58,222 bases of DNA from a virus (taxonomy: Duplodnaviria; Caudoviricetes): IMG/VR virus record IMGVR_UViG_3300037069_001350, positions 1-58,222 of that record, one strand, 5' to 3'. The notes beneath the pieces were generated by a model. That model searched no databases. It saw only the letters and a program-made list of their open reading frames with translations, and was not told the origin of the DNA. Below, in pieces: positions 1,192-58,222 of this stretch. The position numbers were made by a program, and so were the translations under genes. Every line of letters starts with the position of its first letter. Position 1 is the stretch's first letter.

Positions 1192-1605
1192 ATGCCTCGC
1201 TCGATCACCGCTCACGTCACCGGCGCACCGGCCCCGCAGGGCTCGAAGTCCGGCTTCGTGACGAAGTCCGGCAAGGTCAACATGGTCGAGTCGTCGAAGC
1301 GGGTGAAGCCCTGGCGCAAGGCCGTGCACGAGCAGATGAAGGCCGCGGTCGCCGAGCAGGGCTGGGCGACCGCGCAGGACGCCTGCTCGGTCCGCATCAC
1401 GTTCTTCCTGCCCCGCGGCAAGTCGGTGAAGCGTGACCTGCCGACGGTGACGCCGGACCTCGACAAGCTGGTCCGCTCGACGCTGGACGCGCTCACGTCC
1501 TCGCAGGTGATCGCCGACGACAAGCTGGTCTGCTCGATCACGACCAGCAAGGTCTACGACGACGACTACGCCGCGGGCGCGCTGATCACCGTCTCGGCGG
1601 ATTGA
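1192..1605 (+). CDS. rusA: RusA-family Holliday junction resolvase
   Basis: GAPAPQGSK N-terminus and PDLDKLVRSTLDALT...IADD catalytic motif; ATG at 1192. Confidence 0.9.
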   Translation: MPRSITAHVTGAPAPQGSKSGFVTKSGKVNMVESSKRVKPWRKAVHEQMKAAVAEQGWATAQDACSVRITFFLPRGKSVKRDLPTVTPDLDKLVRSTLDALTSSQVIADDKLVCSITTSKVYDDDYAAGALITVSAD

Positions 1606-1775
1606 TCAGCAACCGCCAGAACCGGGTCGCCCGCATGTCGGCAGTCCCGCACGAAGCACACGTCACCAGGTCAGCCTCGCTGACCTGCCAGTTCGACTCG
1701 GTGCAGCAGATCGGCAGTGGCAGCAGCCGCCTGATCCGCTCCCAGTCCCAACCCTCCCCCGAGGAGTTGATCGAC

Positions 1776-2156
1776 ATGCCGCAACGGTACCTGCTCGCGG
1801 TCGCATATCAGCCCGGCGTGGACACGCGCATCGAGAAGGGCGCGGACGGCCACCGGGACTTCTTCACCGAGGCCGAGTTGGAGAAGGCCGCGTGGTCGAT
1901 GCTGCTCGGCGGTGAGCCCGAGGTCGGGCTGTACCACGCCGACGGCACCGTCGGGCACGCGAAGGTCGTCGAGAGCTACGTCTACCGCGGCCCCGACTGG
2001 ACGCTCACCGCGGTCGACGGCTCGACGCAGGTGATCAAGTCCGGCACCTGGCTGACCGGCCTGCTGTGCGACGACATCGCGTGGCGAATGTACGAACGCG
2101 GCGAGGTGCAGGGCGTGTCCCTGCAGGGTGCCGCCCGACGGCGGAGGACCGCATGA
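1776..2156 (+). CDS. XkdF-like putative prohead protease domain protein
   Basis: DFFTEAELEKAAW...GLYH...VVESY...GTW...GVSLQG pattern; GAGGAG RBS; upstream of scaffold and capsid. Confidence 0.7.
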   Translation: MPQRYLLAVAYQPGVDTRIEKGADGHRDFFTEAELEKAAWSMLLGGEPEVGLYHADGTVGHAKVVESYVYRGPDWTLTAVDGSTQVIKSGTWLTGLLCDDIAWRMYERGEVQGVSLQGAARRRRTA

Positions 2157-2338: not shown

Positions 2339-3902
2339 CCTGACCGAGACTCCCGACGCCGTCGAGGACGACGTCGAGGGCACCTGGCTCGCCGACGCCC
2401 AGATCGGTCGCATCGACCTGGTGCACAAGGGCGCGAACGGCCTGCCGTTCCTGATCGCGAAGGGCCAGGGCGGCTTCCTGCCGCCCGAGGCCGTGCAGGA
2501 CCTGCTCGACCGCAACGCGGTGCCGGACCCGGCACCCGTCACCACGCCGCGTGACGACGTCACTCTCACCGGCTCCCCCGCCGCGATCACGAAGATGATC
2601 TTCGACGCGGCCCAGCGGGCAAAGGCCCGTCCCACCGAGGAGAACGACATGACCGACGACGTCAGCAAGGCGAAGGCCGACCTGGACATCACCGAGCCGC
2701 TGTCCGGCGCAGGCGACGCCTCGCCGATGCCGGGCACCCCCGAGTGGGAGGAGGTGGACGCCGCGACCGCCTCGAAGTGGATCGGCGTCCTGGGTCGCGC
2801 GAAGAACGCGATCTGCCTGCTCGCCGAGCGCGAGATGCAGGAGGCCGCGGTCGGCGAGGTCGACGGCGCGGAGAACGCCATGAACCTCGGCGACGCATCG
2901 AGCGCGATCGACTGCGCGATCTCGATCCTCGCCCCGTACGCAGTCGGCGAGCAGATGGACGCCGACCAGGCGCAGCTGTCCGCGGTCGGCAAGGCGCTCG
3001 CCGGTGCCGACGAACCGCTCGACGTGATCGAGCGGCTGGCCCCCGTGGTCAAGGCCGGGCGGGTCCTGTCCGGCAAGAACGAGCAGGCGATCCGTGACGC
3101 CGTCACCGCCCTGCAGGGGGTGCTGGCCTCGCTGCCCGCTCCCATCGACGAGAGCGGCCAGCCGGTCGCGAAGGAGGCCGACATGGCTGCCAGTCCCACC
3201 ACCCTCGAAGTCGAGGTCACGCCGGTCGTCAAGGCCGTCGAACTCGACGCCGCGTCGGAGTTCCCGACCTTCACCCTCGGCACCGTCACGAAGGCGAAGG
3301 GTGACCCGGTCACCGTCGTGTTCAACGCCGACGGCAAGCTGATCGGCGTCATCGACCCCGCCGACCTCATGCCGGTGTCCGACACCGCCGCGAAGTCCGA
3401 CGACTCGTCCGACGACGCCGCGCCCGCCACCGACGACGCCGCCCCGGCGGACGACGCAGCTGCCGCTGCGCCCGCCGCGGACGCCGCCGACCAGGCCGCT
3501 GCCGCGGCCCCCGATGCCACCGCTGACGCCGCCGCGGCTCCCGCCGACGACGACGCCAACGTCCAGAAGTCCACGCAGTCCGACGGGGTCGCCGCCCTGT
3601 CCGCCCTGCTCAATGAGGCCCTGACCCCGATCGCGGAGAAGCTGGCGTCCAACGACCAGCTTGCGAGCGTGGTCAAGGGCCTGCAGGAGCGGGTCGAGCA
3701 GCTGGCGAAGATGCCCGACGACCGCAAGTCCCCGCTGCTCAACGGTGCGTTCGGCACCGGCGACGGCAACGAGGGCGCGGGCGATGCCCACGCCGAACTC
3801 CGCAAGGCGGTCGAGGACGCGAAGTCCGACGCCGAGCGGCGCGACGCTCTGCAGCGTCTCGCCTACGCCGAGGTCAAGGCCCGGTTCAACCCGACCGCCT
3901 GA
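2331..3902 (+). CDS. Capsid scaffold/maturation protein
   Basis: IGRIDLVHKGANGLPFLIAK N-terminal motif, Ala/Asp-rich linker, C-terminal coiled coil; immediately upstream of capsid gene. Confidence 0.6.
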   Translation: MSDLTETPDAVEDDVEGTWLADAQIGRIDLVHKGANGLPFLIAKGQGGFLPPEAVQDLLDRNAVPDPAPVTTPRDDVTLTGSPAAITKMIFDAAQRAKARPTEENDMTDDVSKAKADLDITEPLSGAGDASPMPGTPEWEEVDAATASKWIGVLGRAKNAICLLAEREMQEAAVGEVDGAENAMNLGDASSAIDCAISILAPYAVGEQMDADQAQLSAVGKALAGADEPLDVIERLAPVVKAGRVLSGKNEQAIRDAVTALQGVLASLPAPIDESGQPVAKEADMAASPTTLEVEVTPVVKAVELDAASEFPTFTLGTVTKAKGDPVTVVFNADGKLIGVIDPADLMPVSDTAAKSDDSSDDAAPATDDAAPADDAAAAAPAADAADQAAAAAPDATADAAAAPADDDANVQKSTQSDGVAALSALLNEALTPIAEKLASNDQLASVVKGLQERVEQLAKMPDDRKSPLLNGAFGTGDGNEGAGDAHAELRKAVEDAKSDAERRDALQRLAYAEVKARFNPTA

Positions 3903-4009: not shown

Positions 4010-5461
4010 ATGATCGACGAGAAGATCACCGCCGAGACCCTGGAACTGATCAAGAAGGCGACCACCGCCGGTGTGAACAGTTCGACGGGCATCGTCGGTG
4101 TCGACCTCTCCGACCTGATCTCCCTGATCCCGGTCAACACCCCGTTCCGCGACTCGCTCGCGCGCACGAAGCCGAAGATGGGCGCGAAGTTCGCCGAGTG
4201 GCGTGCCCTCGTGAACGTCAACAACACCCAGCCGAACCCGTTCACCGCGTTCGACTTCGCCGCCCCGCTGGCGAACATCGACGAGCAGGACGTCACCGCC
4301 CTGTACGCGAAGCTCGGCATGGGCTACACCGTCACGCAGGACGCGATCGACCTCGCCGGTGGCTACGCCGACGCGAAGGCCGTCGCCGTGATGAACGCCC
4401 TGAACCAGTTCAAGATCGGCGAGGACAAGGGCTCGATCGGCGGGCAGCTGTTCGCGCTCACCACGCCCGGCACCCCGACCGTGACCCAGTCCGACACCGG
4501 CGGCTCGATCGCCGCATCGACCGCGGTCAACGTGAAGGTCGCCGCCCGCACCGGCGCGAACTACTTCTGGGGCGGCTCGACCGTCGCCAGCGCGCAGGGC
4601 ACGGTCACCACGTCCACCGTCGCCGCGGCCACGCACTCCGCGACCGCCACGGTCGCCGCGGTCCGCGGTGCCGTCGCCTACGACTGGTTCGTCGGCGGCT
4701 TCTACTACACGACCACCACGGTCAACAAGGTCGTGATCACCTCGATCCCGACCGCGAACCAGGCCGTGCCGAACCTGCCGGACCTGTACCAGACCGCCCC
4801 GGCTGGCCCGCCCACCGCGGACTCGTCCGCCGGGTCGAACCAGTTCAACGGCCTGCTGGCCTCCCTCGCCGGTGACTACGCCACCGGCGGCGCGACCGGC
4901 CTGGTCACGCCGGGCTCGGGCACCCCGTCCGGCGCGTACTTCCACTCGCTCGACGGCAGCCCGCTGTCCGTCAGCGGTGCGGCGGTCGCCGAACTGGACA
5001 ACCTGAACCAGTCGATCTACGACACGGTCCGCCTGTCGCCCGACTGCTACATGATGTCCAGCCAGGAGGGCACGAAGCTGTCCAACGTGCTGCTCGGCTC
5101 GACCGTCTCCGAGACGTTCTTCCAGCCGAACCTCGCGGGCCGCTCCGAGGCCGTCCTCGGTTCGTTCGTCGGCTGGTACGTGAACAAGGCCGCGGGCGGC
5201 ACCCCGATCCGCGTCGAGGTCCACCCGCACATGCCGCCGGGCACCCTGATCGCCCGGACGGACCGCGTGCCGTTCCCGAACAGCAACATCACCAACACCT
5301 GCGAGATTCGTACGCTCCGCGACGTGAGCGACTACGACTACGCCGCGAACCGGGCCGCGGGCTCGGGCGGCGGTCCTCGCTTCGACGGTGAGACCTACGC
5401 CAACGAGGTGTTCATCAACAAGGCACCCGTCGCGATGGGCGTGCTGCAGAACATCGGCTGA
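4010..5461 (+). CDS. Major capsid protein with an internal Thr/Ala-rich beta-domain insertion
   Basis: LIPVNTPFRDSLAR N-terminus, IRVEVHPHMPPGTLI and AMGVLQNIG C-terminus; position; strong codon bias. Alternative start GTG 4001. Confidence 0.85.
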   Translation: MIDEKITAETLELIKKATTAGVNSSTGIVGVDLSDLISLIPVNTPFRDSLARTKPKMGAKFAEWRALVNVNNTQPNPFTAFDFAAPLANIDEQDVTALYAKLGMGYTVTQDAIDLAGGYADAKAVAVMNALNQFKIGEDKGSIGGQLFALTTPGTPTVTQSDTGGSIAASTAVNVKVAARTGANYFWGGSTVASAQGTVTTSTVAAATHSATATVAAVRGAVAYDWFVGGFYYTTTTVNKVVITSIPTANQAVPNLPDLYQTAPAGPPTADSSAGSNQFNGLLASLAGDYATGGATGLVTPGSGTPSGAYFHSLDGSPLSVSGAAVAELDNLNQSIYDTVRLSPDCYMMSSQEGTKLSNVLLGSTVSETFFQPNLAGRSEAVLGSFVGWYVNKAAGGTPIRVEVHPHMPPGTLIARTDRVPFPNSNITNTCEIRTLRDVSDYDYAANRAAGSGGGPRFDGETYANEVFINKAPVAMGVLQNIG

Positions 5462-6056: not shown

Positions 6057-6568
6057 CCGCCGGACCGTCGCTGACGGTCCTGCTGCCCTACACCGACGAG
6101 AAGCTGGACCCGCGCTGCGTCGAACTGCTGCAGCGCCACGTCTGCACCGTCCGGCGCTACGCGGGCAGCTTCAAGGCCGTCCGGCTCGACCCTCGCGACA
6201 CGTCCGCCTACTTCCGGCTGGTCGAGTCCGAGTGGTCGCAGCCGGGCGACCTGGTGATCGTCGAGCACGACATCGGCATCCACCGCCACGTCATGCCCGC
6301 CTTCCTGGCCTGCCGCGAGCCCTGGTGCGGCAACGCTTACGCGATCGGCGAGCAGATGCTCGTGTGCCTCGGCTGCACCCGCTTCACCGCCGAGTTGAAG
6401 GCCGCGGAGCCGGACCTGCTCAACGAGGTCGGCCAGGTCGGCAACGACGGCCTGCAGGCCCGCGACTGGCGTCGCCTCGACGTCCGCCTGGCCGACGCCC
6501 TGCACAAGCGCGGCTACCAGCACCACGAGCACACCCCGCCCGTGACGCACTACCACGAGTACCAGTGA
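6053..6568 (+). CDS. Small glycosyltransferase-like (GT-A fold) protein
   Basis: Hydrophobic strand ending in DLVIVEHDI (DxD-like), LGCTRF, C-terminal VTHYH; GTGA overlap. Confidence 0.55.
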   Translation: MTAGPSLTVLLPYTDEKLDPRCVELLQRHVCTVRRYAGSFKAVRLDPRDTSAYFRLVESEWSQPGDLVIVEHDIGIHRHVMPAFLACREPWCGNAYAIGEQMLVCLGCTRFTAELKAAEPDLLNEVGQVGNDGLQARDWRRLDVRLADALHKRGYQHHEHTPPVTHYHEYQ

Positions 6569-6578
6569 GGACCCGGCC

Positions 6579-7481
6579 ATGACCACGCCCGCCGCCGTCG
6601 CCCCGTACGTAGCCACCTACGCGAACCGCGTCCCGTACATCACGGTCGACGAGTTCCTGAACGCCCCGACCGGCGTCGACACCTCGCAGATCAAGCCCGG
6701 CTCGACGCCCACGGAGAACCGCGCCGCGCTCGCCCAGCTGATCCTGCGCGCATCGAGCGAGGCCGACAACATCGCCCGCCAGGTGCTCGCCGCCTCGACC
6801 GACATCCAGATCGGGCAGTACCGGGTCCGCTCGAACGGAACGATCCGCGTGCCCGTCGACTACACGCCACTGGTCGCCGTCACCGGCGTGAAGATCGGCA
6901 CCTCGCCGTCGAACCTGGCCGCGCTGACCGACCTGACCGGCCTGTGGCTGCAGCGCAAGGTCGCCTCGATCCCCGTCTACGGCCCGAGCTACACCCGCCA
7001 GATGGACAACCCGACGGCGACCGCCGACGTCGGCAAGGTCTACGCCCAGGTCACCTACGTCAACGGCTTCGCGAACACCTCGCTGGCCGCGGACGCCGCC
7101 CAGGGCGCGACCTCGATCACGCCGAAGGACACGACCGGCATCTGCCCCGGCCTGCAGCTGACCATCTACGACGCCACCGCGGCCTCGTGGGAGACCGTGA
7201 CGGTCGATCCGAGCTACACCTACGGCTCGGCCACCGTCCCGCTCACTTCGGCGCTGCAGTTCGCCCACACGTCCGGCACGGCGGTCTCCGCCTTCCCCGG
7301 CGACGTAAAACAGGCCGTCATCCACCTGACCACGTTCCTGATCAAGACGCGCGGCGCGGAAGCGATCGCCGTCGACGGCTACGGCTCCGAGCCCGGCCAC
7401 ACCGTCTCCGCGGAGGCGGGCGGCATCGAGGAGTACGACTGGGCCGTCGACCTGCTCGAACCGAAGCGGAGGGTCTGGTGA
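6579..7481 (+). CDS. Head-to-tail adaptor
   Basis: PYITVDEF...ILRASSEAD N-terminus, PGDVKQAVI...LLEP C-terminus; position. Confidence 0.7.
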   Translation: MTTPAAVAPYVATYANRVPYITVDEFLNAPTGVDTSQIKPGSTPTENRAALAQLILRASSEADNIARQVLAASTDIQIGQYRVRSNGTIRVPVDYTPLVAVTGVKIGTSPSNLAALTDLTGLWLQRKVASIPVYGPSYTRQMDNPTATADVGKVYAQVTYVNGFANTSLAADAAQGATSITPKDTTGICPGLQLTIYDATAASWETVTVDPSYTYGSATVPLTSALQFAHTSGTAVSAFPGDVKQAVIHLTTFLIKTRGAEAIAVDGYGSEPGHTVSAEAGGIEEYDWAVDLLEPKRRVW

Positions 7482-14063: not shown

Positions 14064-15038
14064 ATGAGTTCCACCCTCGTGTACCCGTCGCGGCTGGTGA
14101 AGGTCGGCATCGGGAAGGAGTCGACCTTCGGCACCGCCGTCGCCCCTGCCGCGGGGCTGGCGGTGGCCGCGCCGGGCGTCAGCGACAAGCACGCGACGAT
14201 CGTCGACACCGGGTGGCGGCAGTCGACCGCAGCCAGCTACGGGCACCAGCCCGGCCCGCTGGATTCGGCTGTCTCCCTCGGTGGCCCGGCGTTCGTCGAC
14301 GCGCTCGGGTGGCCGCTGGCGGGCGTGCTCGGTGATCACACGGTCACCGGCACGACCGCCCCGTACACGCACACCCTGGCCCTGCTGAACAGCGGCTCGA
14401 TGCAGCCGTCGAGCTACACGGTGACGCTCGACGACCCGGTCGGCGCGCTCGCCTACCCCGGCTGCCGCTGGTCCGGCTTCACGCTCACCGCGAACGCCGA
14501 CGGCCTGCTCACCTGGGGCGGCACCCTCGCCGGGCTCAACCCCGGCGCAGGCAGCGTCCCCCCGGCCCCCGCAGTGGTGCTGCCGATGCCCGGCTGGTCC
14601 GGCGTCGTCACCATCGGCGGGTCGGTCGAGTCGCGCGTGCTCGACCTCAGCGTGTCGATCACCCGGCAGCTGACCGCGAAGCGCAACACGAACGGCCAGC
14701 AGACCCCGAACAACATCCAGGCTGGGGCGCTCGCCGTCAGCGGGCAGGCGACACTGCTGATCCACAACGACAACTACCGCAGCAGCCTGCTCAACGCGAG
14801 CAGCCTCGCGATCGACGCGACCTGGTCGCAGGGTGCGGGCGCTGCCTCGCAGCAGATCACCCTGCACTCGTCCGCCTGCGTGCTCGACGCGGCCAGCCGC
14901 GCCTACGTGGGCGACTGGGTCGAGGTGCAGCTGGGCTGGACGGCGGACGCGAACACGACCGACGCCGGTGCCTCCGGTGGCAAGTCCCCCATCAAGGCCA
15001 CCCTGATCAATGCGGTCGGGGCCGGTCTCTACACGTAG
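14064..15038 (+). CDS. Second tail-tube-like protein (paralog of 8843-9829)
   Basis: YPS...GIGKESTFGTA; LG..VTGT..P.TH..AL.N; QPSSYT; PMPGW; similar length. Confidence 0.7.
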   Translation: MSSTLVYPSRLVKVGIGKESTFGTAVAPAAGLAVAAPGVSDKHATIVDTGWRQSTAASYGHQPGPLDSAVSLGGPAFVDALGWPLAGVLGDHTVTGTTAPYTHTLALLNSGSMQPSSYTVTLDDPVGALAYPGCRWSGFTLTANADGLLTWGGTLAGLNPGAGSVPPAPAVVLPMPGWSGVVTIGGSVESRVLDLSVSITRQLTAKRNTNGQQTPNNIQAGALAVSGQATLLIHNDNYRSSLLNASSLAIDATWSQGAGAASQQITLHSSACVLDAASRAYVGDWVEVQLGWTADANTTDAGASGGKSPIKATLINAVGAGLYT

Positions 15039-15051
15039 AGGAGTCACGGCG

Positions 15052-18000
15052 ATGACGTCGAACTGGCCGCTGATCGAGGAGTCCATCGGCTTCGCGATGG
15101 GTCCGGGCACCCCGACGACGGAGTGGATCACCCCCGACAACAGGGCGAACTACTACGGCGTGTCGCTCGCGACGTCCGGCCTGTTCCTGAACCTCACTCC
15201 GCGCACCGAGGGCACCTGGACGTGCACCCGCGGTCGGCAGTACGAACTCGACCAGGTGCAGGCGGGCTCCGCGTCGTCGACGATGAACAACATCGACGGC
15301 GCGCTCGACCCGACCAACACGTCCTCGCCGTTCTACCCCCAGGTCAAGATGTACCGGGCCTACCGCCGCCGGGCGCAGTACCCGGCGAGCAAGAACCTGC
15401 TGTCGCTCGACCAGGTCACCGGCGGCAACGACCCGTCGGGCGCGTTCGGCGCGAACATGGGTCGCTACGTCACCCCGTCCGCCGTGTTCCCGATCTCCTT
15501 CCTGGGCAACACCCCGTCGGGCTCGACCGGCCAGATGGTCGAGATCGGCGGCTGGGCCGTCAGCCCCGGCGTCTCGCACGCCGCGCAGATGAACTGGTAC
15601 TCGACGACCGCCTCGATCTCCTACTACCTGCAGTTCCGCTGGTATGACGTGAGCGGCAACCTGATCAGCACCACGAACGGCAGCATCGTCCCGACCGGCG
15701 CGGGCGGTGGCGGTGCCACCGCCACCGTTGTCGGCACGCCGCCTGCGGGCTGCGCCGGTGCCACGATCGCCGCGGTGATGACCTCCGGTCCGAGCGTGTC
15801 CTCGTTCGTCCAGTGGAACATCGCGCAGGTCGAACTCGGCTCGGCCCCGACCACGTACGCCACCCCCGGCACCTGGTATGACCTGTTCACCGGCTTCATC
15901 AACGGCTGGCCGCAGACCTGGGACGGGCAGGGCACGTACGGCGTCTCGAACCTCTCGGTCACCGACGCCTTCGGCTACCTCTCGCAGCACCCGATCCTCG
16001 CGCCCGGCTATCAGGAGATTCTGGCCGCGGTAAACGGTGTGCAGTTCGGGGCGACCTTGGGCTGGTTCTTCCCGCTCGACGAGGCCCAGAACTCGACCCA
16101 GTGGCTCGATCTCACCGGCAACCTGTCGCCGATGCAGCGCATCCTGCTCAGTGCTGGTGCACCCTCGCAGTGCACCGCGGGCAACCAGCTGAACACGGTG
16201 CCGATCGACAAGTTCATCTCGTCCGGATTCGGCTACACCCGCGGCTTCCAGCCCACCTCGATCGGCGGGCCGGTCACCTCGTTCAGCAATGACGGCCACA
16301 CCGGCGCGGCGGTGCTCGACCTCGGGGCGGCGAAGCAGCAGATCGGCCCCGGCGACTCCGGGGCCTGGTCGATGGTGTTCATGGTCTACATGCCCGCCAC
16401 CGCGACGCCGGGTAGCAACACCGACCTGCAGACCGTCTGGGGCTGCTACAACAACTACCCCGCGGGCGGTGTGCAGTCGATCGAGTTGTACGGCACCCCC
16501 ACGTCGTTCTACAAGTTGAAGATCATCGCCAACGGCACGACGATGATGGACACCTCGTTCCCGTCCACCGCGGGCTACCCCGCGAACGACGGGGCGTGGC
16601 ACCTGCTGATCGTCACCATGTCCAGTGACGGCAAGACCGTCACCCTCACCTCGGACACGAACGCGACCACGGTCGTCACGAACGCCTCCGACATGCACCC
16701 GCAGTTCCAGATGTACGGGTACGCCGGATGGGAGGTGCTGGGCGGGCACCAGATCGGCTACAACCAGGTCGAGCACGGCTGGACCGGCTCGCTGGCCTGC
16801 GTCGGGTACATCCCGGAAGACCTGCACGACTACTCGCCGCTGCAGTCGGGCACCGTCGTCGACCAGCCGTCGATCTCGAACCTGGTGAACACCCTGACGA
16901 GGAACACGAACGGCAACTGGCTGGGAAGCACCGGGCTGATCACCAGCGACTCGGGGCAGCGGGCGCTCGACATCCTGCGCTGGGCCGGATGGAAGGGCGA
17001 CCGCAACGTCCACCGCCTGATCCCGAACAACGGCGACACCTACGGACCGGGCACCTGCTGGGCCTACGGTGCGCCGAGCGAGTACGTGGCCGACACGTCC
17101 AGCACCGGCACCGACGTCGTCACCGCACTGCAGACCGTCACCGACACGGAGAACGGCACGCAGTACGTCGACGCTGGTGGCCGGGTCACCTTCAAGCTGC
17201 GCCGGGACCGCTACAACCAGCAGGTGTCCCTCGTGTTCGGCGAGGGCGCGACCGGCCCGTACCGGACCAACCTGTGCGTCGACCCCTCGTTCGAGGTGGA
17301 CGTCGCCGGGTGGACCGGCGGCGGGGCGACGATCGCCTTCGACAACACCCGCTCGTGGTACGGCTTCGCCTGCGCGAAGATCACCGGCGCGAACGCTGCG
17401 GCGGCTCCGGGTGTCACGGCGAAGGTGCCGGTCACCGCGGGCCAGTTCTACGCGGTGAGTGCCTACCTGAACCCGAACGTGGCCCTGGCGACCGCCGCGG
17501 CCCCGCTGTGGATCAGCTGGTTCACCAACACGGGCACGCTGATCTCGACGCAGCTGGCCCCGACGAGCAAGCTCACCGGGACGACCGGCGTTTGGACCCG
17601 CTACATCCTCATGGGGCAGGCCCCGAGCAACGCCGCCACGGCGACGTTCGGCGTGCTCAACACGACGAGCCTGCTCAACACCGAGATCGTCGGGCTCGAC
17701 TGTGTGCTGTTCGAGCAGACCGGCGTGCCCGGCGGGTACTTCGACGGCTCGGGCGACCCCGGCTTCGCGCAGGCGAACTTCACCTACGCCTGGACCGGGA
17801 CCGCGAACGAGTCGACGTCGACGATGACCGCGGTCGAGGTGCCCTACACGACGGTGCGGCCCGCGTTCGATCCGGTCAAGCTGGTTGACGATGTCAAGCT
17901 GACGCAGACGTCGTCGGGAAACTCGTTCCGGCAGATCAACCAGACCTCGGTGCAGCAGTACGGCGACGTGCAGCTGCAGCGCAACGTCAACACGCTGAAC

Positions 18001-18339
18001 ACCTACGAGATCAACGACGGCGCGACGTTCCTGCTCGACCGCTACGACAACGCCGTGCAGCGGATCGAGTCGATCACCGTCGACGTCGCCGCGACGAACT
18101 CGTGGGCAGCTGTCCTTCCGCTCGAACTGGGCTCGGTCGTGCGCGTCATGCGCCGCCCCCCGTCCCCGGCCCCGGCGATCATGTTCGACGGCTTCGTCGA
18201 GCAGATCATCTGGTCGCAGGACGACCAGGGCAACGCCACCGTCACCCTGCAGCTGTCGCCGCTCGGCAACCTGCAGTTCTGGCAGCTGGACTCCAACCAG
18301 TTCGGCGTGCTCGGCGTGACCACCATCTGCGGCTACTGA
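15052..18339 (+). CDS. Large minor tail protein with LamG-like and carbohydrate-binding-like domains
   Basis: TRGRQYELDQVQAG...NIDGALDP, FPLDE, NDGAWHLL and TNLCVDPSFE motifs; GAGGAG RBS before ATG 15052. Confidence 0.8.
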   Translation: MTSNWPLIEESIGFAMGPGTPTTEWITPDNRANYYGVSLATSGLFLNLTPRTEGTWTCTRGRQYELDQVQAGSASSTMNNIDGALDPTNTSSPFYPQVKMYRAYRRRAQYPASKNLLSLDQVTGGNDPSGAFGANMGRYVTPSAVFPISFLGNTPSGSTGQMVEIGGWAVSPGVSHAAQMNWYSTTASISYYLQFRWYDVSGNLISTTNGSIVPTGAGGGGATATVVGTPPAGCAGATIAAVMTSGPSVSSFVQWNIAQVELGSAPTTYATPGTWYDLFTGFINGWPQTWDGQGTYGVSNLSVTDAFGYLSQHPILAPGYQEILAAVNGVQFGATLGWFFPLDEAQNSTQWLDLTGNLSPMQRILLSAGAPSQCTAGNQLNTVPIDKFISSGFGYTRGFQPTSIGGPVTSFSNDGHTGAAVLDLGAAKQQIGPGDSGAWSMVFMVYMPATATPGSNTDLQTVWGCYNNYPAGGVQSIELYGTPTSFYKLKIIANGTTMMDTSFPSTAGYPANDGAWHLLIVTMSSDGKTVTLTSDTNATTVVTNASDMHPQFQMYGYAGWEVLGGHQIGYNQVEHGWTGSLACVGYIPEDLHDYSPLQSGTVVDQPSISNLVNTLTRNTNGNWLGSTGLITSDSGQRALDILRWAGWKGDRNVHRLIPNNGDTYGPGTCWAYGAPSEYVADTSSTGTDVVTALQTVTDTENGTQYVDAGGRVTFKLRRDRYNQQVSLVFGEGATGPYRTNLCVDPSFEVDVAGWTGGGATIAFDNTRSWYGFACAKITGANAAAAPGVTAKVPVTAGQFYAVSAYLNPNVALATAAAPLWISWFTNTGTLISTQLAPTSKLTGTTGVWTRYILMGQAPSNAATATFGVLNTTSLLNTEIVGLDCVLFEQTGVPGGYFDGSGDPGFAQANFTYAWTGTANESTSTMTAVEVPYTTVRPAFDPVKLVDDVKLTQTSSGNSFRQINQTSVQQYGDVQLQRNVNTLNTYEINDGATFLLDRYDNAVQRIESITVDVAATNSWAAVLPLELGSVVRVMRRPPSPAPAIMFDGFVEQIIWSQDDQGNATVTLQLSPLGNLQFWQLDSNQFGVLGVTTICGY

Positions 18340-52755: not shown

Positions 52756-54207
52756 GTGGCCGAGCCTTACGACGCCCGGCACATGCGCGACATTCACGAC
52801 GCCGCCCTGGCCGCGCTGATCCCGGCCCGCCTCGTCCGACCGTGGAAGCTGCTGGCCCGCCCGGAGCAGGTCGCCCCGGACGGCGAGTGGCTGGTCTGGA
52901 TATTCCTGGCCGGACGCGGCGCGGGTAAGACACGCTCCGCCGCGGAGCAGGTGTGCGAGTGGGCCGAGGATCACCCCGGCTGCCGCATCGCCCTGGTGGG
53001 CCGCACACCCGCCGACGTCCGTGACGTGATGATCGAGGGCGAGTCCGGCATCCTCGCCTGCTCCGACGACGAGCACCGGCCCGTCTACGAGCCGACGAAG
53101 CGCCGCCTGACCTGGCCGAACGGCTCGACCGCCACCGCCTACTCCGCCGAGGTGCCGTCGGCGCTGCGCGGCCCGCAGCACCACTTCGCCTGGGCCGACG
53201 AGAACGCCGCCTGGTCGGAGGCCCCGAAGGGCGACGTCGTCGACACGGCGTGGAACAACCTCATGCTGGGCCTGCGCCTCGGCCAGTCTCCGCGGTGCAT
53301 CGTCACCACGACCCCGAAGCCGAACCGGCTGATCCGCGACATCCTCGGTCGACGGTCCACCGTCGTCTCGCGCGGGACCACCTACGACAACCTGTCGAAC
53401 CTGGCCCCCGCCTTCCGCGAGCAGGTGCTCGCCACCTACGAAGGCACCCGCATCGGGCGGCAGGAACTGCAGGGCGAACTGCTCGACGACGTCGAGGGTG
53501 CCCTCTGGGGGTCGGCCATGATCGAGGACCACCGCATCCTGCACGGCGACCCGGTACCGGACATGCGCCGCATCGTCGTCGGTGTGGACCCGTCCGGCGG
53601 CTCCGGTCCCGAGAACGACGAGCAGGGCATCGTCGTGGCAGGCATCGGGGTGGACGGCGAGTTCTACGTGCTCGACGACAAGTCCTGCAAGCTGTCGCCG
53701 CACGGCTGGGGCTCACGCGCTGTCGGTGCCTTCGAGCAGTGGGGCGGCGACCGGATCGTGGCCGAGAAGAACTACGGCGGCGAGATGGTGCTGTCGACGA
53801 TCAAGCAGGTCGACTCGAAGGTGCCGGTGAAGCTGGTGTCGGCGAGCCGCGGCAAGGCGGTCCGCGCCGAGCCGATCGCCGCCCTGTACGAGCAGGGCAA
53901 GGTGCACCACGTCGGGTCGTTCCCGCAGTTGGAGGACGAACTGACCACCTGGGCTCCGTTCGACGCGGCCCAGAAGGACTCACCGAACCGGCTGGACGCG
54001 CTCGTGTGGGCGCTGACCGACCTCGCCTTCAACGGCGGGCAGGGCCGGGCGTTCATCGAGCACTGGAAGCGGCAGACCGCGCCCGACCCGGCTGACACCT
54101 CGGCCACCCCCGTGCGTAGCTCGGCACGGAACTGGCGCGAGATCGCCGACCAGATCAAGAAGGAACGCGGCGGTCAGCCGCGCACACGGGAGGACGGACA
54201 TGGCTAA
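52756..54207 (+). CDS. terL: Terminase large subunit
   Basis: AGRGAGKT Walker A, LRGPQ...WADE, TTTP, VGVDPS, EKNYGG and DSPNRLDAL. Confidence 0.96.
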   Translation: MAEPYDARHMRDIHDAALAALIPARLVRPWKLLARPEQVAPDGEWLVWIFLAGRGAGKTRSAAEQVCEWAEDHPGCRIALVGRTPADVRDVMIEGESGILACSDDEHRPVYEPTKRRLTWPNGSTATAYSAEVPSALRGPQHHFAWADENAAWSEAPKGDVVDTAWNNLMLGLRLGQSPRCIVTTTPKPNRLIRDILGRRSTVVSRGTTYDNLSNLAPAFREQVLATYEGTRIGRQELQGELLDDVEGALWGSAMIEDHRILHGDPVPDMRRIVVGVDPSGGSGPENDEQGIVVAGIGVDGEFYVLDDKSCKLSPHGWGSRAVGAFEQWGGDRIVAEKNYGGEMVLSTIKQVDSKVPVKLVSASRGKAVRAEPIAALYEQGKVHHVGSFPQLEDELTTWAPFDAAQKDSPNRLDALVWALTDLAFNGGQGRAFIEHWKRQTAPDPADTSATPVRSSARNWREIADQIKKERGGQPRTREDGHG

Positions 54208-56032
54208 GAACCGCAACCGCCGCCCTGCCGCTCGGGCGCAGGTCGTGAAGAACACCGCGGTCGTGTCGAGCCCGCAGACGCCGCCGGACGTCGAGCAGGC
54301 GCTCGTGGCGCAGGGCATGACCTCGACGTCGCCGTTCGGGCCGGGTACGCCGCTGCGCCCCTACATCGGCATCTCGGTGCCGCCGCGGGTCAACGACTAC
54401 CCGGTCGGCGTGAACATCGCCGTCCGCACCCGCCAGTCGTGGAACCTGATGTCGTTCGACACGATCAAGGCCCTGATCGACGGCTATGACGTGGCCCGCA
54501 TGTGCATCAACCACAAGATCGACGAACTGCGCTCGATGGAACCGATGTTCGTCCCCGCCGACGGGCACTCCGGTGCCGCCGTCGACGCAGCCTGCGACAC
54601 CGCCCGCGCCGCGATGGAGTTCCCTGATAGGGAACTGCCGTTCGACGGGTGGCTGAACAAGCTGATGGAGAACGCGCTGCGCTACGACACCCCGACGCTG
54701 TATCGCCGCCGCAACCTCAACGGCGACGTGATCGGGCTCGACGTCATCGACGGCACCACGATCTACCCCTACATCGACGAGCGTGGCCGCAAGCCCCGGC
54801 CCCCGGCCCCCGCCTACTACCAGCTGATCCACGGCACCGTCTGGGACCACTTCACCTCGAACGACCTGATCTACCAGCCGTTCCGCCCGCAGTCGAACCA
54901 CCCGTACGGCCTCGCGCCGATGGAGTCGCTGCTGCTCACCGCCAACACCGACATCCGGTTCCAGTGGCACTTCATGCAGATGTTCACCGACGGCTCGATC
55001 CCCGGTGGCTTCGTCGAGGTGCCGCCGGACATCTCCTCCCCGGACCAGGTCGCGGAGTGGCAGGACTACTGGGACGCGATGGTCCTCGGCGACCAGGCGA
55101 AGATGCACCAGCTGCTCGCCGTCCCGAACGGCACGAAGGTGACCGGCACGAAGCCGGACGCCTTCGACTCGTCCTTCCCCGAATACCTCATGGCCCGCAC
55201 CTGCGCCGCGTTCGGCGTGGTCCCGCAGGACCTGGGTCTGGTGAAGGACGTGAACCGGGCGAACGGCGAGACGCAGGTCGACATCCAGTTCCGCGTCAAC
55301 ACCCTGCCCTGGGTCCGTTGGATCGAGGGAATCGCCACCCGCTACCTCCGGTATGACCTGGGTCTGCCGGTGAAGATGCAGCTGGACACGGGCCGCGACA
55401 AGGAAGATCGACTGTCCGAGGCGCAGGCGTGGCAGATTTACGTGCAGTCCGGCTTCGCCTCCGCTGACGAGGCCCGGCAGGAACTGCTCGGCTTGGAGAT
55501 CGACTCCGAGCGCCCGGTGCCCCGCTTCGTGCTCGACCCCCGCACGGGTCCGATCCCGCTGGCGAACATCGAGGCGATCGCCGGTCGCATCGACCCGGAG
55601 ACTGCCGCGCCGGTCGACGACCAGCCGCTGCCCACGGAGCCGTTCAACGGTGCCGAGGGTGTGCTGCCGGACAAGGCCCCCGGCGGGACGCAGTTCAAGC
55701 GCGCCCCGATCAACCCGGACGAGCCCCGCTTCCCCGAGATGGAGAAGCCGATCCCCGGCACCGACGTCGTCGGCACCCGGCCCGGCACCCCTGTCATCGG
55801 CGACCCCGGCGTCACGGAGGACTCGAAGCTGACCGAGCCGGTCGGCAAGGCCCTCGACCCGGCTGCCGCGGAGATGCAGGCGTTCAGCCGGTTCTGCAAG
55901 GCGCGCGCCCGTGCTGGCCGCTGGCGCGACTTCGAGTTCGAGCACGTCCCCGCGGGGATCGCTCGGGCGCTGAACGAGCACCACCGCGAGAGGATCACGA
56001 AGGCGGCTGATGCCGCCCCTTTCGCCCGGTAG
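54200..56032 (+). CDS. Portal protein
   Basis: IDGTTI.P, YGLAPME, FTDGSIP and AFGVVPQDLG...DVNRA motifs; follows terL. Confidence 0.92.
   Translation: MAKNRNRRPAARAQVVKNTAVVSSPQTPPDVEQALVAQGMTSTSPFGPGTPLRPYIGISVPPRVNDYPVGVNIAVRTRQSWNLMSFDTIKALIDGYDVARMCINHKIDELRSMEPMFVPADGHSGAAVDAACDTARAAMEFPDRELPFDGWLNKLMENALRYDTPTLYRRRNLNGDVIGLDVIDGTTIYPYIDERGRKPRPPAPAYYQLIHGTVWDHFTSNDLIYQPFRPQSNHPYGLAPMESLLLTANTDIRFQWHFMQMFTDGSIPGGFVEVPPDISSPDQVAEWQDYWDAMVLGDQAKMHQLLAVPNGTKVTGTKPDAFDSSFPEYLMARTCAAFGVVPQDLGLVKDVNRANGETQVDIQFRVNTLPWVRWIEGIATRYLRYDLGLPVKMQLDTGRDKEDRLSEAQAWQIYVQSGFASADEARQELLGLEIDSERPVPRFVLDPRTGPIPLANIEAIAGRIDPETAAPVDDQPLPTEPFNGAEGVLPDKAPGGTQFKRAPINPDEPRFPEMEKPIPGTDVVGTRPGTPVIGDPGVTEDSKLTEPVGKALDPAAAEMQAFSRFCKARARAGRWRDFEFEHVPAGIARALNEHHRERITKAADAAPFAR
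56017..56023 (+). other. -1 slippery heptamer C CCT TTC
   Basis: X XXY YYZ in the portal frame, two codons before its TAG; the -1 frame is the Nudix ORF. Confidence 0.7.
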
Positions 56033-57321
56033 CCGCCGGGCTCGCCGTGCAGGCCGCGGACACGGGTCGTGTCCTCATGCTGCAGCGGTCGATGAACGAC
56101 CCGTCGACCGCTACGGCAGGCATGTGGGAGTTCCCCGGCGGCTGCCTCGAAGCGGGTGAGTCCACCCGCGTCGGGGCGATGCGCGAATGGTGCGAGGAGG
56201 TCGGCCAGCTGCTGCCTCGTGGCGAACTGGCTGGCAGCTGGCGCACGCAGGTCTACGAGGGCCACGTCTGGTCGATCCCGTCCGAGGACGACATCGACCT
56301 GCTGGACCGGGACACGGTGAGCAACCCGGACGACCCGGACGGCGACGACATCGAGTCGATCGCCTGGTGGTCCCCGGAGCACCTGATCGGCAACCCCGCG
56401 GTCCGCACCGAACTGGCTGCGAGCCTCGACGTGGTGCTGCCCACCCTCGGTGTCGACCCGGTCGAGAAGTCGACCGACGACGACTGGCACGCCCACCCTG
56501 ACCGGCACGTCGAGCAGGCCCTCACCGGCTTCCACTCGCAGAACGTGCACGCCGCGATGGGCGACATGGTCACGCTCGACCAGCTGCGCGAGGTGGCTCG
56601 TAGCTACCTGGCGATCCACCGCCAGCCGGTCGTGAAGTTCGACGGGCAGGCCCGCGACGCCAACGGCAGGTTCGCCGCTGGCGGCATGGGTGGCAACGAC
56701 TCGGGCTCGAAGTCGTCGGGCTCGGGCTCGGCAGGCTCGGGCTCGGCAGGCGGCTACGCGGAGATCACCGCCGCTGACCTGCAGGCTGGCGACGGGTCGG
56801 CGAACAGCCGGGCCGTGTCGTCGAGCGAGTTCCAGGCGCTCGCCGCCGAGGGTCACGCCTCGATGGACGCCCGGATCGCCGCCTCGTCCCCGCCCACGGG
56901 GATCAGCAGCAACCTGGACGCGGTGAAGGCCAGCAGCTACGCCTCGGTGCAGGAGTCGTGGGGCGGCACCACGATCGACGCCCACACCGGCGCGCCGGTC
57001 GCGAGCAACGGGGCGAACGCCTACGCGCTCTCGATCAAGCCCGCCGGGGTGGCCTCGGTCAGCATCCCCGAGAACGCCACCGCGGCCCAGTTCGGGTCGG
57101 CGATGGACTCGGCGATGTCGCAGTTCCATGACCAGCTGTCGATCGCTGGCGCTCACCTCGGCGTGTTCCACAACGACGCAGGCGGCACCATCGAGATCGA
57201 CCCGACCCTGGTGGTCGGATCGCTGCACGAGGTCGAGACGATCGGCGCGTACACGCACGCCGTCGGCGGCGCGTACAACTTCGCCGACGGCAACGGCTAC
57301 TGGCCCCCGCACGTCGCCTGA
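56017..57321 (+). CDS. Nudix hydrolase domain plus C-terminal domain of unknown function; probable frameshift extension of the portal (first in-frame start is GTG 56047)
   Basis: WEFPGGCLEAGE...AMREWCEEVG Nudix box; ARDANGRF motif; Gly/Ser linker. Confidence 0.8.
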   Translation, partial: PFRPVAAGLAVQAADTGRVLMLQRSMNDPSTATAGMWEFPGGCLEAGESTRVGAMREWCEEVGQLLPRGELAGSWRTQVYEGHVWSIPSEDDIDLLDRDTVSNPDDPDGDDIESIAWWSPEHLIGNPAVRTELAASLDVVLPTLGVDPVEKSTDDDWHAHPDRHVEQALTGFHSQNVHAAMGDMVTLDQLREVARSYLAIHRQPVVKFDGQARDANGRFAAGGMGGNDSGSKSSGSGSAGSGSAGGYAEITAADLQAGDGSANSRAVSSSEFQALAAEGHASMDARIAASSPPTGISSNLDAVKASSYASVQESWGGTTIDAHTGAPVASNGANAYALSIKPAGVASVSIPENATAAQFGSAMDSAMSQFHDQLSIAGAHLGVFHNDAGGTIEIDPTLVVGSLHEVETIGAYTHAVGGAYNFADGNGYWPPHVA

Positions 57322-57353
57322 CCGTAGTGTCATAACCGCTGGAAGGATCGACC

Positions 57354-57527
57354 ATGAGCGAGCGCATCGTCACGCACTTCAAGGGACCGGGGCAGTGGTA
57401 CGCCCAGGCCCGGAAGCTGCAGGAGGAGCACGCGCGCACCCACCCGGACGAGCGGCCCGCGCCGCGGATCGAGCACCAGCCCGAGCCGAGCGAGCCCCGC
57501 ACCTCGGAGGTCGACAGTGGCGACTGA
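57354..57527 (+). CDS. Small hypothetical protein
   Basis: GAAGGA RBS and ATG. Confidence 0.55.
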   Translation: MSERIVTHFKGPGQWYAQARKLQEEHARTHPDERPAPRIEHQPEPSEPRTSEVDSGD

Positions 57528-57681
57528 TACGGAACTGGCTGTCGATCGCTGCCCCGTCTGCGGGCATCGGTCGACGACCCTGGCGACCAGGCTGATCGGC
57601 GGGCTGATCGTGGCGCTGATCGCGGCGCTGGTCGTGCTCGGGCTCGGCGACCTGGTCGTCCTGGCAGCCAGCCACCTGTGA
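57517..57681 (+). CDS. Small CxxC membrane protein
   Basis: GGAGG RBS; CPVCG followed by a TM segment. Confidence 0.55.
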   Translation: MATDTELAVDRCPVCGHRSTTLATRLIGGLIVALIAALVVLGLGDLVVLAASHL

Positions 57682-57866
57682 GCAGGCCGCTGCCGCTCGT
57701 GATCGAGCGCGACCCGAGCCCCTGCACCTGGTGCGAGGGCTCGGGCACCTTCCCGGTGCTAGTCGACGGCGAACGCCGCGGTCAGCTGCGCTGGGCCGAC
57801 ACCCGGTGCCCGAACTGCTCGGGCACCGGCACGAAAGACGCGGGTGTGAGTACACCCGATCAGTGA
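57678..57866 (+). CDS. Small DnaJ-type zinc-finger protein
   Basis: CTWCEGSG and CPNCSGTG. Confidence 0.6.
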   Translation: MSRPLPLVIERDPSPCTWCEGSGTFPVLVDGERRGQLRWADTRCPNCSGTGTKDAGVSTPDQ

Positions 57867-57915
57867 CGCGCGTGATGCCGTCACCCGCAGTGCGCGCGAC
57901 GCCGCTGCAGCACCG

Positions 57916-57950
57916 ACGCCCCCCCGGCGGCTGAAACGCCGGGGGGGCGT
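57916..57950 (+). terminator. 14-bp perfect hairpin upstream of the MuF-like gene
   Basis: ACGCCCCCCCGGCG GCTGAAA CGCCGGGGGGGCGT. Confidence 0.6.
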
Positions 57951-57979
57951 TGCACTGTCCGCCTGGGGAGGGCTGCCGC

Positions 57980-58222
57980 ATGTCCGCACCGCAGCCGAAG
58001 CCCGACGCCGTACTGGAACAGCTGCCCGCCCCGCACGAGGCGAAGCCGCAGCCCGACGTCTCCGAGCCCGCCGAGGTCACCCGCGCCCGCGAGTTCCTGC
58101 GCGACCACCTGCACCTCGACACGACGACCTTGAAGGACGCGCTGGCCGCGGTCTACGGGGACGCCTACTCGTCCGGCGTGCTGGCCGGTCTGCAGCTGGA
58201 CGGCAGCGCGAACCCGGTGCCC
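57980..58222 (+). CDS. MuF-like minor head protein, 5' part (continues at the window start)
   Basis: GGGGAGGG RBS and ATG 57980; in frame with 35..1189 through the terminal repeat. Confidence 0.85.
   Translation, partial: MSAPQPKPDAVLEQLPAPHEAKPQPDVSEPAEVTRAREFLRDHLHLDTTTLKDALAAVYGDAYSSGVLAGLQLDGSANPVP
58097..58222. repeat. Terminal direct repeat, right copy
   Basis: Identical to bases 2-127. Confidence 0.95.

Follow-up and report, generated by a model that had tools for sequence, protein, structure and literature searches.

The DNA analysed here is a stretch of 58,222 nt (hereafter the window) from a soil phage, comprising an entire IMG/VR virus record (IMGVR_UViG_3300037069_001350), and the element in question is the 3′ end of its portal gene, which is followed in the -1 frame by an open reading frame (ORF) for a Nudix domain. 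The portal gene and the downstream Nudix ORF probably constitute one recoded gene, in which a programmed -1 ribosomal frameshift at a C CCT TTC heptamer would yield both a 610-aa portal protein and a 1040-aa portal-Nudix fusion. That the frameshift is programmed is what we infer from the sequence; it would be a canonical -1 frameshift in a new gene and is apparently a family-wide device. The features concerned are as follows.

54200..56032, + strand: portal protein, 610 aa, product of the 0 frame (Pfam Phage_portal, PF04860, E 8.6e-20)
56008..56010, + strand: TGA closing the -1 frame upstream (read from the sequence)
56017..56023, + strand: candidate slippery heptamer C CCT TTC, read in the portal frame as Pro (CCT) and Phe (TTC)
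56023..57321, + strand: predicted -1 frame extension, 432 codons plus stop (Pfam NUDIX, structure model and Nudix box)
56047..56049, + strand: GTG, the first ATG/GTG/TTG of the -1 frame and the rival initiation site (read from the sequence)

The ORF with the heptamer at its 3′ end was identified as a portal gene by its PF04860 score (71.6 bits against a curated cutoff of 39.1) and by the large terminase subunit gene directly upstream; it also matched phrog_2662 in PHROGs (E 4e-43) and showed 53–66% identity to at least 25 metagenomic portals.

The heptamer at the portal 3′ end

In the portal frame, bp 56012–56032 read GCC GCC CCT TTC GCC CGG TAG, with the stop codon TAG at bp 56030–56032. Since the TGA at bp 56008–56010 closes the -1 frame, the -1 ORF cannot begin earlier; it is open over 436 codons (bp 56011–57321), and the read-through product is 1040 aa long. 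A preliminary description of this DNA had placed the heptamer at bp 56017–56023, had read the -1 frame from there straight into the Nudix ORF with a TGA just upstream and had estimated a fusion of roughly 1040 aa, all of which agreed with our reading. High third-position GC marks the portal frame up to about bp 56015 and the -1 frame beyond it. In the whole window, XXXYYYZ heptamers (Y = A or T) occur three times on the + strand and twice on the - strand, and within frames of high third-position GC only 2 of 21,913 codon positions carry one in phase, the site at bp 56017 being one of the two. A slip could join both ORFs at 5 codon positions only, and the chance of finding a heptamer there is p ~2e-4.

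The other in-phase heptamer, G GGA AAC (bp 17916–17922), lies within a 1109-aa ORF (bp 15010–18339) and was considered as a second frameshift site; it is probably due to chance, as the 168 codons over which its -1 frame stays open do not look like coding sequence. The + strand of the window showed no frameshift site of the tail-chaperone type that has a canonical heptamer. Transcriptional slippage at the portal 3′ end was rejected, as it is established that runs such as C4 and T3 are too short for it. In Escherichia coli, C_CC.U_UU.C is among the motifs with "high level frameshifting", and the four heptamer types seen here and in the relatives described below all fall within the set found experimentally to be shift-prone in E. 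coli (Sharma et al. 2014, PMC4066793), a paper that puts background -1 expression at roughly 0.05%.

The Nudix domain and its start codons

The Pfam NUDIX profile (PF00293) covered residues 6–128 of the stop-to-stop -1 frame (E 1.9e-15, 57.5 bits against a cutoff of 21.1), and the Nudix box was intact (G-x5-E-x7-R-E-W-x-E-E-x-G), with Q replacing the final hydrophobic residue of GX5EX7REUXEEXGU. Judged by both profile and box, the -1 frame encodes a Nudix hydrolase domain. This domain lies at approximately bp 56026–56445 and is followed by a middle region, a Gly/Ser-rich linker and a C-terminal domain at approximately bp 56647–57318.

The main rival to a frameshift is independent initiation: the portal gene and the Nudix gene would be separate, the former ending at TAG 56030 and the latter being translated by reinitiation or coupling at GTG 56047 or ATG 56077, with the heptamer being incidental. 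The geometry permits coupling, the GTG being 14 nt past the portal stop, and the gene caller of the database starts the Nudix gene at ATG 56077, thereby calling a stand-alone 414-aa protein (P0002). The ordinary gene borders found elsewhere in the family and the poor spacing of the hairpin for frameshift stimulation, both dealt with below, point the same way. Nevertheless, we regard this alternative as unlikely on several grounds. As had been supposed, GTG 56047 lacks a ribosome-binding site: no Shine-Dalgarno-like run precedes either this GTG or ATG 56077 (best 3 of 6 matches to AGGAGG), and several ATG-start ORFs of the window score 4–5 of 6. The GTG is residue 13 of the stop-to-stop frame, and the NUDIX match starts before it. 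Residues A9, G10, A12 and V13 were invariant in all 14 Nudix domains aligned; V13 is the GTG codon, and therefore three invariant residues (A9, G10 and A12) precede the only start codon. An AlphaFold model of -1 frame residues 1–150, built on the 14-domain alignment (predicted local distance difference test 87.6, predicted template modelling score 0.82), placed strand 1 at residues 8–15 and strand 2 at residues 21–25, so that the GTG falls inside the first Nudix strand of the model, as the preliminary description had guessed. According to this model, a start at GTG 56047 would remove 5 of the 8 strand-1 residues, and a start at ATG 56077 would remove strand 1 together with part of strand 2. 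Moreover, the 18 nt preceding the GTG still encode family-conserved residues in the -1 frame, and separate genes would leave the presence of the heptamer (p ~2e-4) to coincidence.

The C-terminal domain is approximately 190–220 aa long and ends in ...GNGYWPPHV (residues 213–436 of the stop-to-stop frame, P0001). An unrelated portal of 711 aa (P0007) has a C-terminal extension to which the last 224 aa were 53% identical, and related sequence forms the C-terminus of many proteins with DUF7178, DUF7218 or L5_gp82 N-terminal parts. Neither Pfam nor PHROGs contained a family for this domain, and a Protein Atlas search returned only unnamed viral clusters with scores of at most 0.85 and template modelling scores of at most 0.59. 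The domain looks like a shuffled head-cargo or targeting module.

The frame change in independent assemblies

Two short homopolymer runs adjoin at the site, and in the relatives the junction shows no change of frame; both facts would fit an assembly or sequencing indel in a genome that in truth encodes an in-frame fusion. Logan contigs of four soil-metagenome runs (X1, X5, X6 and X7) were compared with the window across bp 55600–56500. X1, possibly the source run, matched throughout this stretch with 0 differences; X5 and X6, neither of them flagged as the source, matched over the junction with 0 differences and 0 gaps; and X7, from another study, covered bp 55922–56349 with 23 substitutions and 0 gaps (~95% identity). 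No insertion or deletion was found in this region in any of the four runs. Because independent runs and the X7 variant share the layout without gaps, an indel introduced by assembly, which the preliminary description had asked to be checked, is excluded for practical purposes.

The X7 variant retains the TGA, the heptamer and the TAG. Its sole change between the heptamer and GTG 56047, C>T at bp 56025, is synonymous in the -1 frame (CGC>CGT) and replaces Ala by Val in the portal frame, which argues against separate genes. Downstream of bp 56047, 12 X7 substitutions are listed, of which 9 hit the third codon position when read in the Nudix frame (binomial p ~0.004 if the three positions were used equally). 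This bias indicates that the Nudix frame is maintained by purifying selection in a lineage with such a layout.

Relatives with in-frame portal-cargo-MuF fusions

Megablast of bp 54200–57400 against cultured phages gave no match. Relatives were collected by portal-query scans of viral, metagenome and genome collections, of which 30 were kept; a related-locus scan with the Nudix ORF alone as query yielded no relatives. Dropped before counting were 1) L033–L037 and L051, the portals of which were only 24% identical, 2) L030 and L050, with no junction on the contig, 3) the duplicates L019 (= L018), L020 (in L031), L017 (in L045) and L026 (= L005), and 4) L039–L044 and L046–L049, which were the same contigs as loci of the viral collection.

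With tblastn against cultured phages, the Nudix domain was located within gp3 of Arthrobacter phages Sonali and Mufasa8, 995 aa (annotated as "portal and MuF-like fusion protein") and 1000 aa in length, respectively. The window portal was 45% identical to the portal part of Sonali gp3, and the Nudix ORF was 46% identical to Sonali gp3 from residue 9 of the stop-to-stop frame, i.e. from upstream of the GTG. The portal is followed by a Nudix domain in 20 of the 30 relatives, among them Sonali and Mufasa8, with the reading frame unbroken in every case, so the in-frame portal-Nudix fusions that had been sought in related genomes do exist. In the remaining 10, what follows in frame is a 2H phosphoesterase-like module, some other module or MuF alone. 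The ORFs of most relatives are 840–1330 aa long with the MuF domain at the end, and portal, Nudix and MuF were found together in 8 of 20 scanned portal-frame ORFs (e.g. L006, L008 and L011). The 1040-aa read-through product of the window is collinear with the in-frame portal-Nudix fusions, and its portal/Nudix linker has 11 extra nt relative to 10 relatives, the heptamer being included in these. The relatives thus encode portal, effector and MuF as one polypeptide, whereas in the window MuF is separate and Nudix is joined via a frame change; on this comparison, the window seems to work like a split version of the portal-effector-MuF family.

It was also noticed that a 2H phosphoesterase/2′-5′ RNA ligase-like module (PF13563, E 2.7e-6 to 4.8e-4, in most cases under the curated cutoff) replaces or supplements Nudix in some relatives, and that some also have a module with a DGHHR motif, which may resemble ParB/sulfiredoxin-type domains. 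The loci in which 2H-like or DGHHR modules were seen are L013, L018, L022, L027 and L031 (~100 aa after the portal part) and L014, L015, L016, L045 and L031. The cargo position in the portal fusions is modular. In L009 (bp 3700–3730), MuF is a separate gene in the +1 frame, with its GTG overlapping the TAG of the portal-Nudix ORF and without a heptamer. Some relatives were situated in bacterial contigs or genomes (L042, 490,514 nt, and L052–L054; labels Jatrophihabitantaceae, Subtercola and, for a metagenome-assembled genome, Burkholderiaceae); therefore, the family includes prophages, mostly of Actinobacteria.

The relatives also bear on a further possibility, namely that a real and recent frameshift mutation in the C/T run split an ancestral fusion, so that the Nudix part is unexpressed or decaying, or rescued by adventitious slippage. 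All 20 Nudix-bearing relatives being in frame at the junction is what such a mutation would predict, and homopolymer runs are indel hot spots at which an indel would leave heptamer-like sequence. However, the difference from the relatives is 11 nt and not 1 nt, such C/T runs are almost absent from the genome, the 432-codon -1 frame (third-position GC 0.8–1.0) and its Nudix box are intact, and the layout is kept in the ~5% diverged X7 variant with its excess of third-position substitutions. A recent mutation is thus quite improbable.

Linker heptamers across the family

A scan of the portal-frame ORFs revealed an in-phase heptamer in a polyprotein linker in 26 of the 30 relatives: C CCA AAA in 23, C CCT TTA in L008 and L028, and both C CCT TTT and C CCT TTA in L053. 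For most of these the position is immediately ahead of the MuF module, following a conserved [VL]-A-K-A ... P-K motif. The expectation that the heptamer would recur at the portal 3′ end of related genomes was thus borne out for the linkers in general and, at the same linker as in the window, for L053; mostly, the site is in the other, pre-MuF linker. In 25 of the 26 relatives, the -1 frame stops 1–9 codons past the site, compared with 12.3% for random positions in these ORFs, where the median is 56 codons.

The codons at the site are unusual. CCA makes up 6.5% of Pro codons and AAA 12% of Lys codons, and CCA AAA accounts for 21 of 67 Pro-Lys dicodons; the codon before CCA AAA ended in C in 23 of 23 dicodons, against a background of 47%. 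The use of rare CCA and AAA, always preceded by a C-ending codon, makes it unlikely that the heptamer pattern arose by chance. At all 23 sites examined, the 40 nt 3′ of the heptamer folded better than the median control window from the same ORF, and 12 of the 23 were below the 10th percentile of fold stability (median percentile 0.084; Wilcoxon p = 1.3e-5, which overstates independence because the lineages are related). The GC-rich hairpins of the relatives typically begin 4–8 nt after the heptamer. RNAalifold predicted 0 pairs for ten 43-nt post-heptamer stretches; the hairpins are of two or more sequence classes, which MAFFT did not bring into alignment. The z-scores from 60-nt mononucleotide shuffles of the post-heptamer stretches were mostly weak.

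Sonali (L001, MK411746.1, bp 4354–4360) and Mufasa8 (L002, NC_049478.1, bp 4347–4353) carry C CCA AAA in frame at codon 737/738; the -1 frame ends in a stop 9 codons further on, and a CCCTCC/GGAGGG hairpin begins ~8 nt downstream. The portal-Nudix-MuF gene of these phages is annotated as a single gene without a frameshift; a truncated portal-Nudix product is predicted in addition. L053 is a prophage in the isolate Subtercola vilae DB165 (NZ_QYRT01000022.1); C CCT TTT in its portal/Nudix linker (bp 6231–6237) encodes Pro-Phe as in the window and is followed by a -1 stop 2 codons later, and C CCT TTA before MuF (bp 6687–6693) is followed by a -1 stop 1 codon later. With two linker heptamers, three nested products are predicted from the L053 portal-Nudix-MuF ORF.

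A layout like that of the window was found in L005/L026, which stem from two metagenomes and share 99.8% identity without gaps. In their pre-MuF linker, the 0 frame stops 1 codon after C CCA AAA; the -1 frame, which opens 19 nt ahead of that stop, encodes a 523-codon MuF part (PF04233) that is homologous to in-frame sequence of other relatives. The region downstream of the L005 heptamer showed no significant structure in dinucleotide shuffles (z = -0.95 and 0.29). The extending layout is shared only by L005/L026, and a heptamer in the portal/Nudix linker only by L053. These patterns suggest that the site of the window is the extending version of a cassette that would truncate in most relatives, so the earlier proposal that a slip extends the portal seems to apply to the window and L005/L026, and in most relatives the slip would shorten the product instead.

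Nearly every heptamer was preceded by a motif consisting of [VLM]-[AVTK]-K-A, 3–7 Gly/Asp/Ala-rich residues and Pro-Lys (Pro-Phe in the window). Examples are in the linkers of L005–L054 (e.g. L018 bp 6380–6416) and at bp 55997–56023 of the window. The [VLM]-[AVTK]-K-A motif could be a prohead-protease cleavage site, or its AAGGCGG-like DNA could act as an upstream Shine-Dalgarno-like stimulator.

RNA structure around the heptamer and points against frameshifting

Two stem-loops were predicted downstream of the heptamer in the window.

56024..56041, + strand: 7-bp GC-rich hairpin GCCCGGU/GCCGGGC with the portal stop codon in its loop (RNA fold)
56044..56089, + strand: second predicted stem-loop (67-nt fold; the 107-nt fold has z = -3.57)

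The 67-nt fold that includes the first hairpin had z = -2.84, with 0 of 200 shuffles equally stable, and the second stem-loop begins ~20 nt after the heptamer.

Several observations weigh against a programmed frameshift in the window, or against a cassette of this kind throughout the family. The first hairpin begins 0–1 nt past the heptamer, compared with the usual 5–9 nt; the local fold stability of the window is only at the 17.5th percentile of control windows; a 51-nt fold around the site was not significant (z = -0.28); and an Rfam search of bp 55800–56300 gave no match at E <= 1, frameshift elements included. Among the relatives, 4 of 30 (L006, L012, L009 and L010) have no linker heptamer, and six in-phase heptamers lie outside linkers, with the -1 frame open for 12–327 codons in 5 of the 6 and stopping after 9 in the other (L053, codon 330). 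Furthermore, 0 of the 20 Nudix-bearing relatives have a frame change at the portal/Nudix junction, so to speak in the position where the window has one, and ordinary gene borders between modules do occur, as for the MuF gene of L009 and that of the window itself (from ~57950). The extending layout could be a lineage-specific, tolerated mutation, and extending and truncating layouts would give opposite stoichiometries if the efficiency is similar across lineages.

Proposed mechanism and its meaning

With these points taken into account, a programmed -1 frameshift remains the reading that we consider probable for the window. Most ribosomes would read CCT TTC GCC CGG and stop at TAG 56030 to give the 610-aa portal, and a fraction would slip by -1 on C CCU UUC, with tRNA-Pro moving from CCU to CCC and tRNA-Phe from UUC to UUU, and would add 432 codons in the -1 frame to give the 1040-aa portal-Nudix-C-terminal-domain fusion. 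In known portal structures the portal C-terminus faces the capsid interior; therefore, the head would hold a Nudix hydrolase tethered to a few of the 12 portal subunits. The tethered enzyme may be released and injected, and we speculate that the prohead protease (bp 1602–2156) might release it at the conserved [VL]AKA motif.

For the family as a whole, we slightly favour the view that these actinobacterial phages and prophages possess a modular portal-cargo-MuF polyprotein with conserved -1 frameshift cassettes in its linkers, in either layout, which would determine on how many of the 12 portal subunits cargo or MuF enters the head. On balance, and with the same modest confidence, each cassette would combine a shift-prone heptamer (C CCA AAA or C CCU UUN) with a 3′ hairpin and with a stop codon close by in one or the other frame.

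If this is true, the portal gene harbours a previously unrecognised class of recoding, which would explain how copy number is controlled for bulky enzymes and MuF fused to a 12-fold portal and would provide a covalent, ratio-setting route for packaging injected effectors. It would also affect annotation, since gene callers start the Nudix gene at an internal ATG and lose part of the fold, and in the relatives they miss the predicted second, truncated portal product. The hypothesis is directly testable in the cultured Arthrobacter phages.

Gene order in the window

The G+C content of the window is 69.5%. Bases 2–127 are identical to bases 58097–58222, an overlap of 126 nt at the ends of the record; therefore, the assembly is circular or circularly permuted with a length of ~58.1 kb (~58,096 bp), though the record is labelled "linear". 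The genes neighbouring the portal-Nudix region are as follows.

52756..54207, + strand: large terminase subunit (Pfam Terminase_6N, E 3.8e-21, and Terminase_6C, E 2.7e-16), overlapping the portal start
57950..58222, continuing at 128–1189 across the contig ends, + strand: separate gene for a MuF-like minor head protein (Pfam Phage_Mu_F)
1602..2156, + strand: prohead protease, XkdF-like S78, the next head gene (Pfam Peptidase_S78_2, E 2.1e-11)

The Phage_Mu_F (PF04233) match, on bp 2–1186 of the window, had E 3.9e-4 and 21.6 bits, below the curated cutoff of 29.6, and the MuF-like ORF resembled the MuF modules of the relatives when judged by eye. Between the Nudix ORF and this gene (bp 57322–57950), third-position GC suggests three short coding stretches in differing frames (~57336–57524, ~57545–57678 and 57678–57866), the last being a 62-aa CxxC...CxxC zinc-ribbon protein (phrog_6060, E 6.6e-6). 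Cys-rich inserts like this zinc ribbon sit in frame within the polyproteins of L005, L023 and L045.

Comparison with known systems

Programmed -1 frameshifting in phages is known for tail chaperones and for some capsid and tail proteins. One such system is the tail assembly chaperone frameshift of the lambda G/GT type (Xu, Hendrix and Duda 2004, as cited in PMC7302621). As in that system, the heptamer of the window lies near the 3′ end of a structural gene, the 0-frame stop follows soon after, and a -1 extension would be made as a minority product; in G/GT, this extension sets a fixed ratio of short to long forms. The differences are that the gene here is the portal, that the extension consists of an enzyme and an uncharacterised domain, and that most relatives fuse these parts constitutively. 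The major head protein of Lactobacillus phage A2 is reported to undergo a -1 frameshift (Garcia et al. 2004, in the reference lists of PMC10885494 and PMC5009743), reportedly at C CCA AAA, which is also the prevailing heptamer among the relatives of the window. The T7 10A/10B and A2 major head genes resemble the proposed arrangement in that head proteins arise in two C-terminal forms by -1 slippage; unlike in these phages, it is the portal and not the capsid subunit that would be extended (or, in the relatives, truncated), and the variable part is cargo. In dnaX of E. coli, the heptamer A AAA AAG, an upstream Shine-Dalgarno-like element and a 3′ hairpin give a truncated product, gamma, besides tau. 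This is a model for the layout of the relatives, where a slip with a -1 stop within a few codons would give truncated and full-length products; in the window the arrangement is reversed, and a slip would extend the product. General rules for such sites are given in PMC4066793 and PMC5009743.

The literature searched, with supplements and subscription journals outside its scope, yielded no account of frameshifting in portal genes or of slippery sites conserved among portal-MuF fusions, and the word "portal" does not occur in the available part of the 2016 recoding review. PRFect lists MuF-like/VIP2 joins among its unannotated predictions (PMC10885494). The family-wide linker heptamers in portal-cargo-MuF polyproteins are newly found here. 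Portal-MuF fusions have been annotated in actinophages, including Sonali gp3 (Jacobs-Sera et al. 2020, PMC7302621), and Nudix (T4 NudE-like) and 2H domains fused to portal or MuF have been predicted to be packaged in the head and injected (PMC5512222, PMC9503650). The domain content is thus the same as that of the "polyvalent proteins" (Iyer et al. 2017, PMC5512222; Iyer et al. 2022, PMC9503650); unlike the window, these fusions are treated there as single constitutive polypeptides, and the word "frameshift" does not occur in PMC5512222. In SPP1, gp7 of the MuF family is brought into the procapsid in few copies by the portal gp6 (PMC6316719). By analogy, the window would likewise load a minor head component substoichiometrically via the portal, although in SPP1 separate proteins bind non-covalently, whereas here a covalent link on a fraction of the subunits is proposed.

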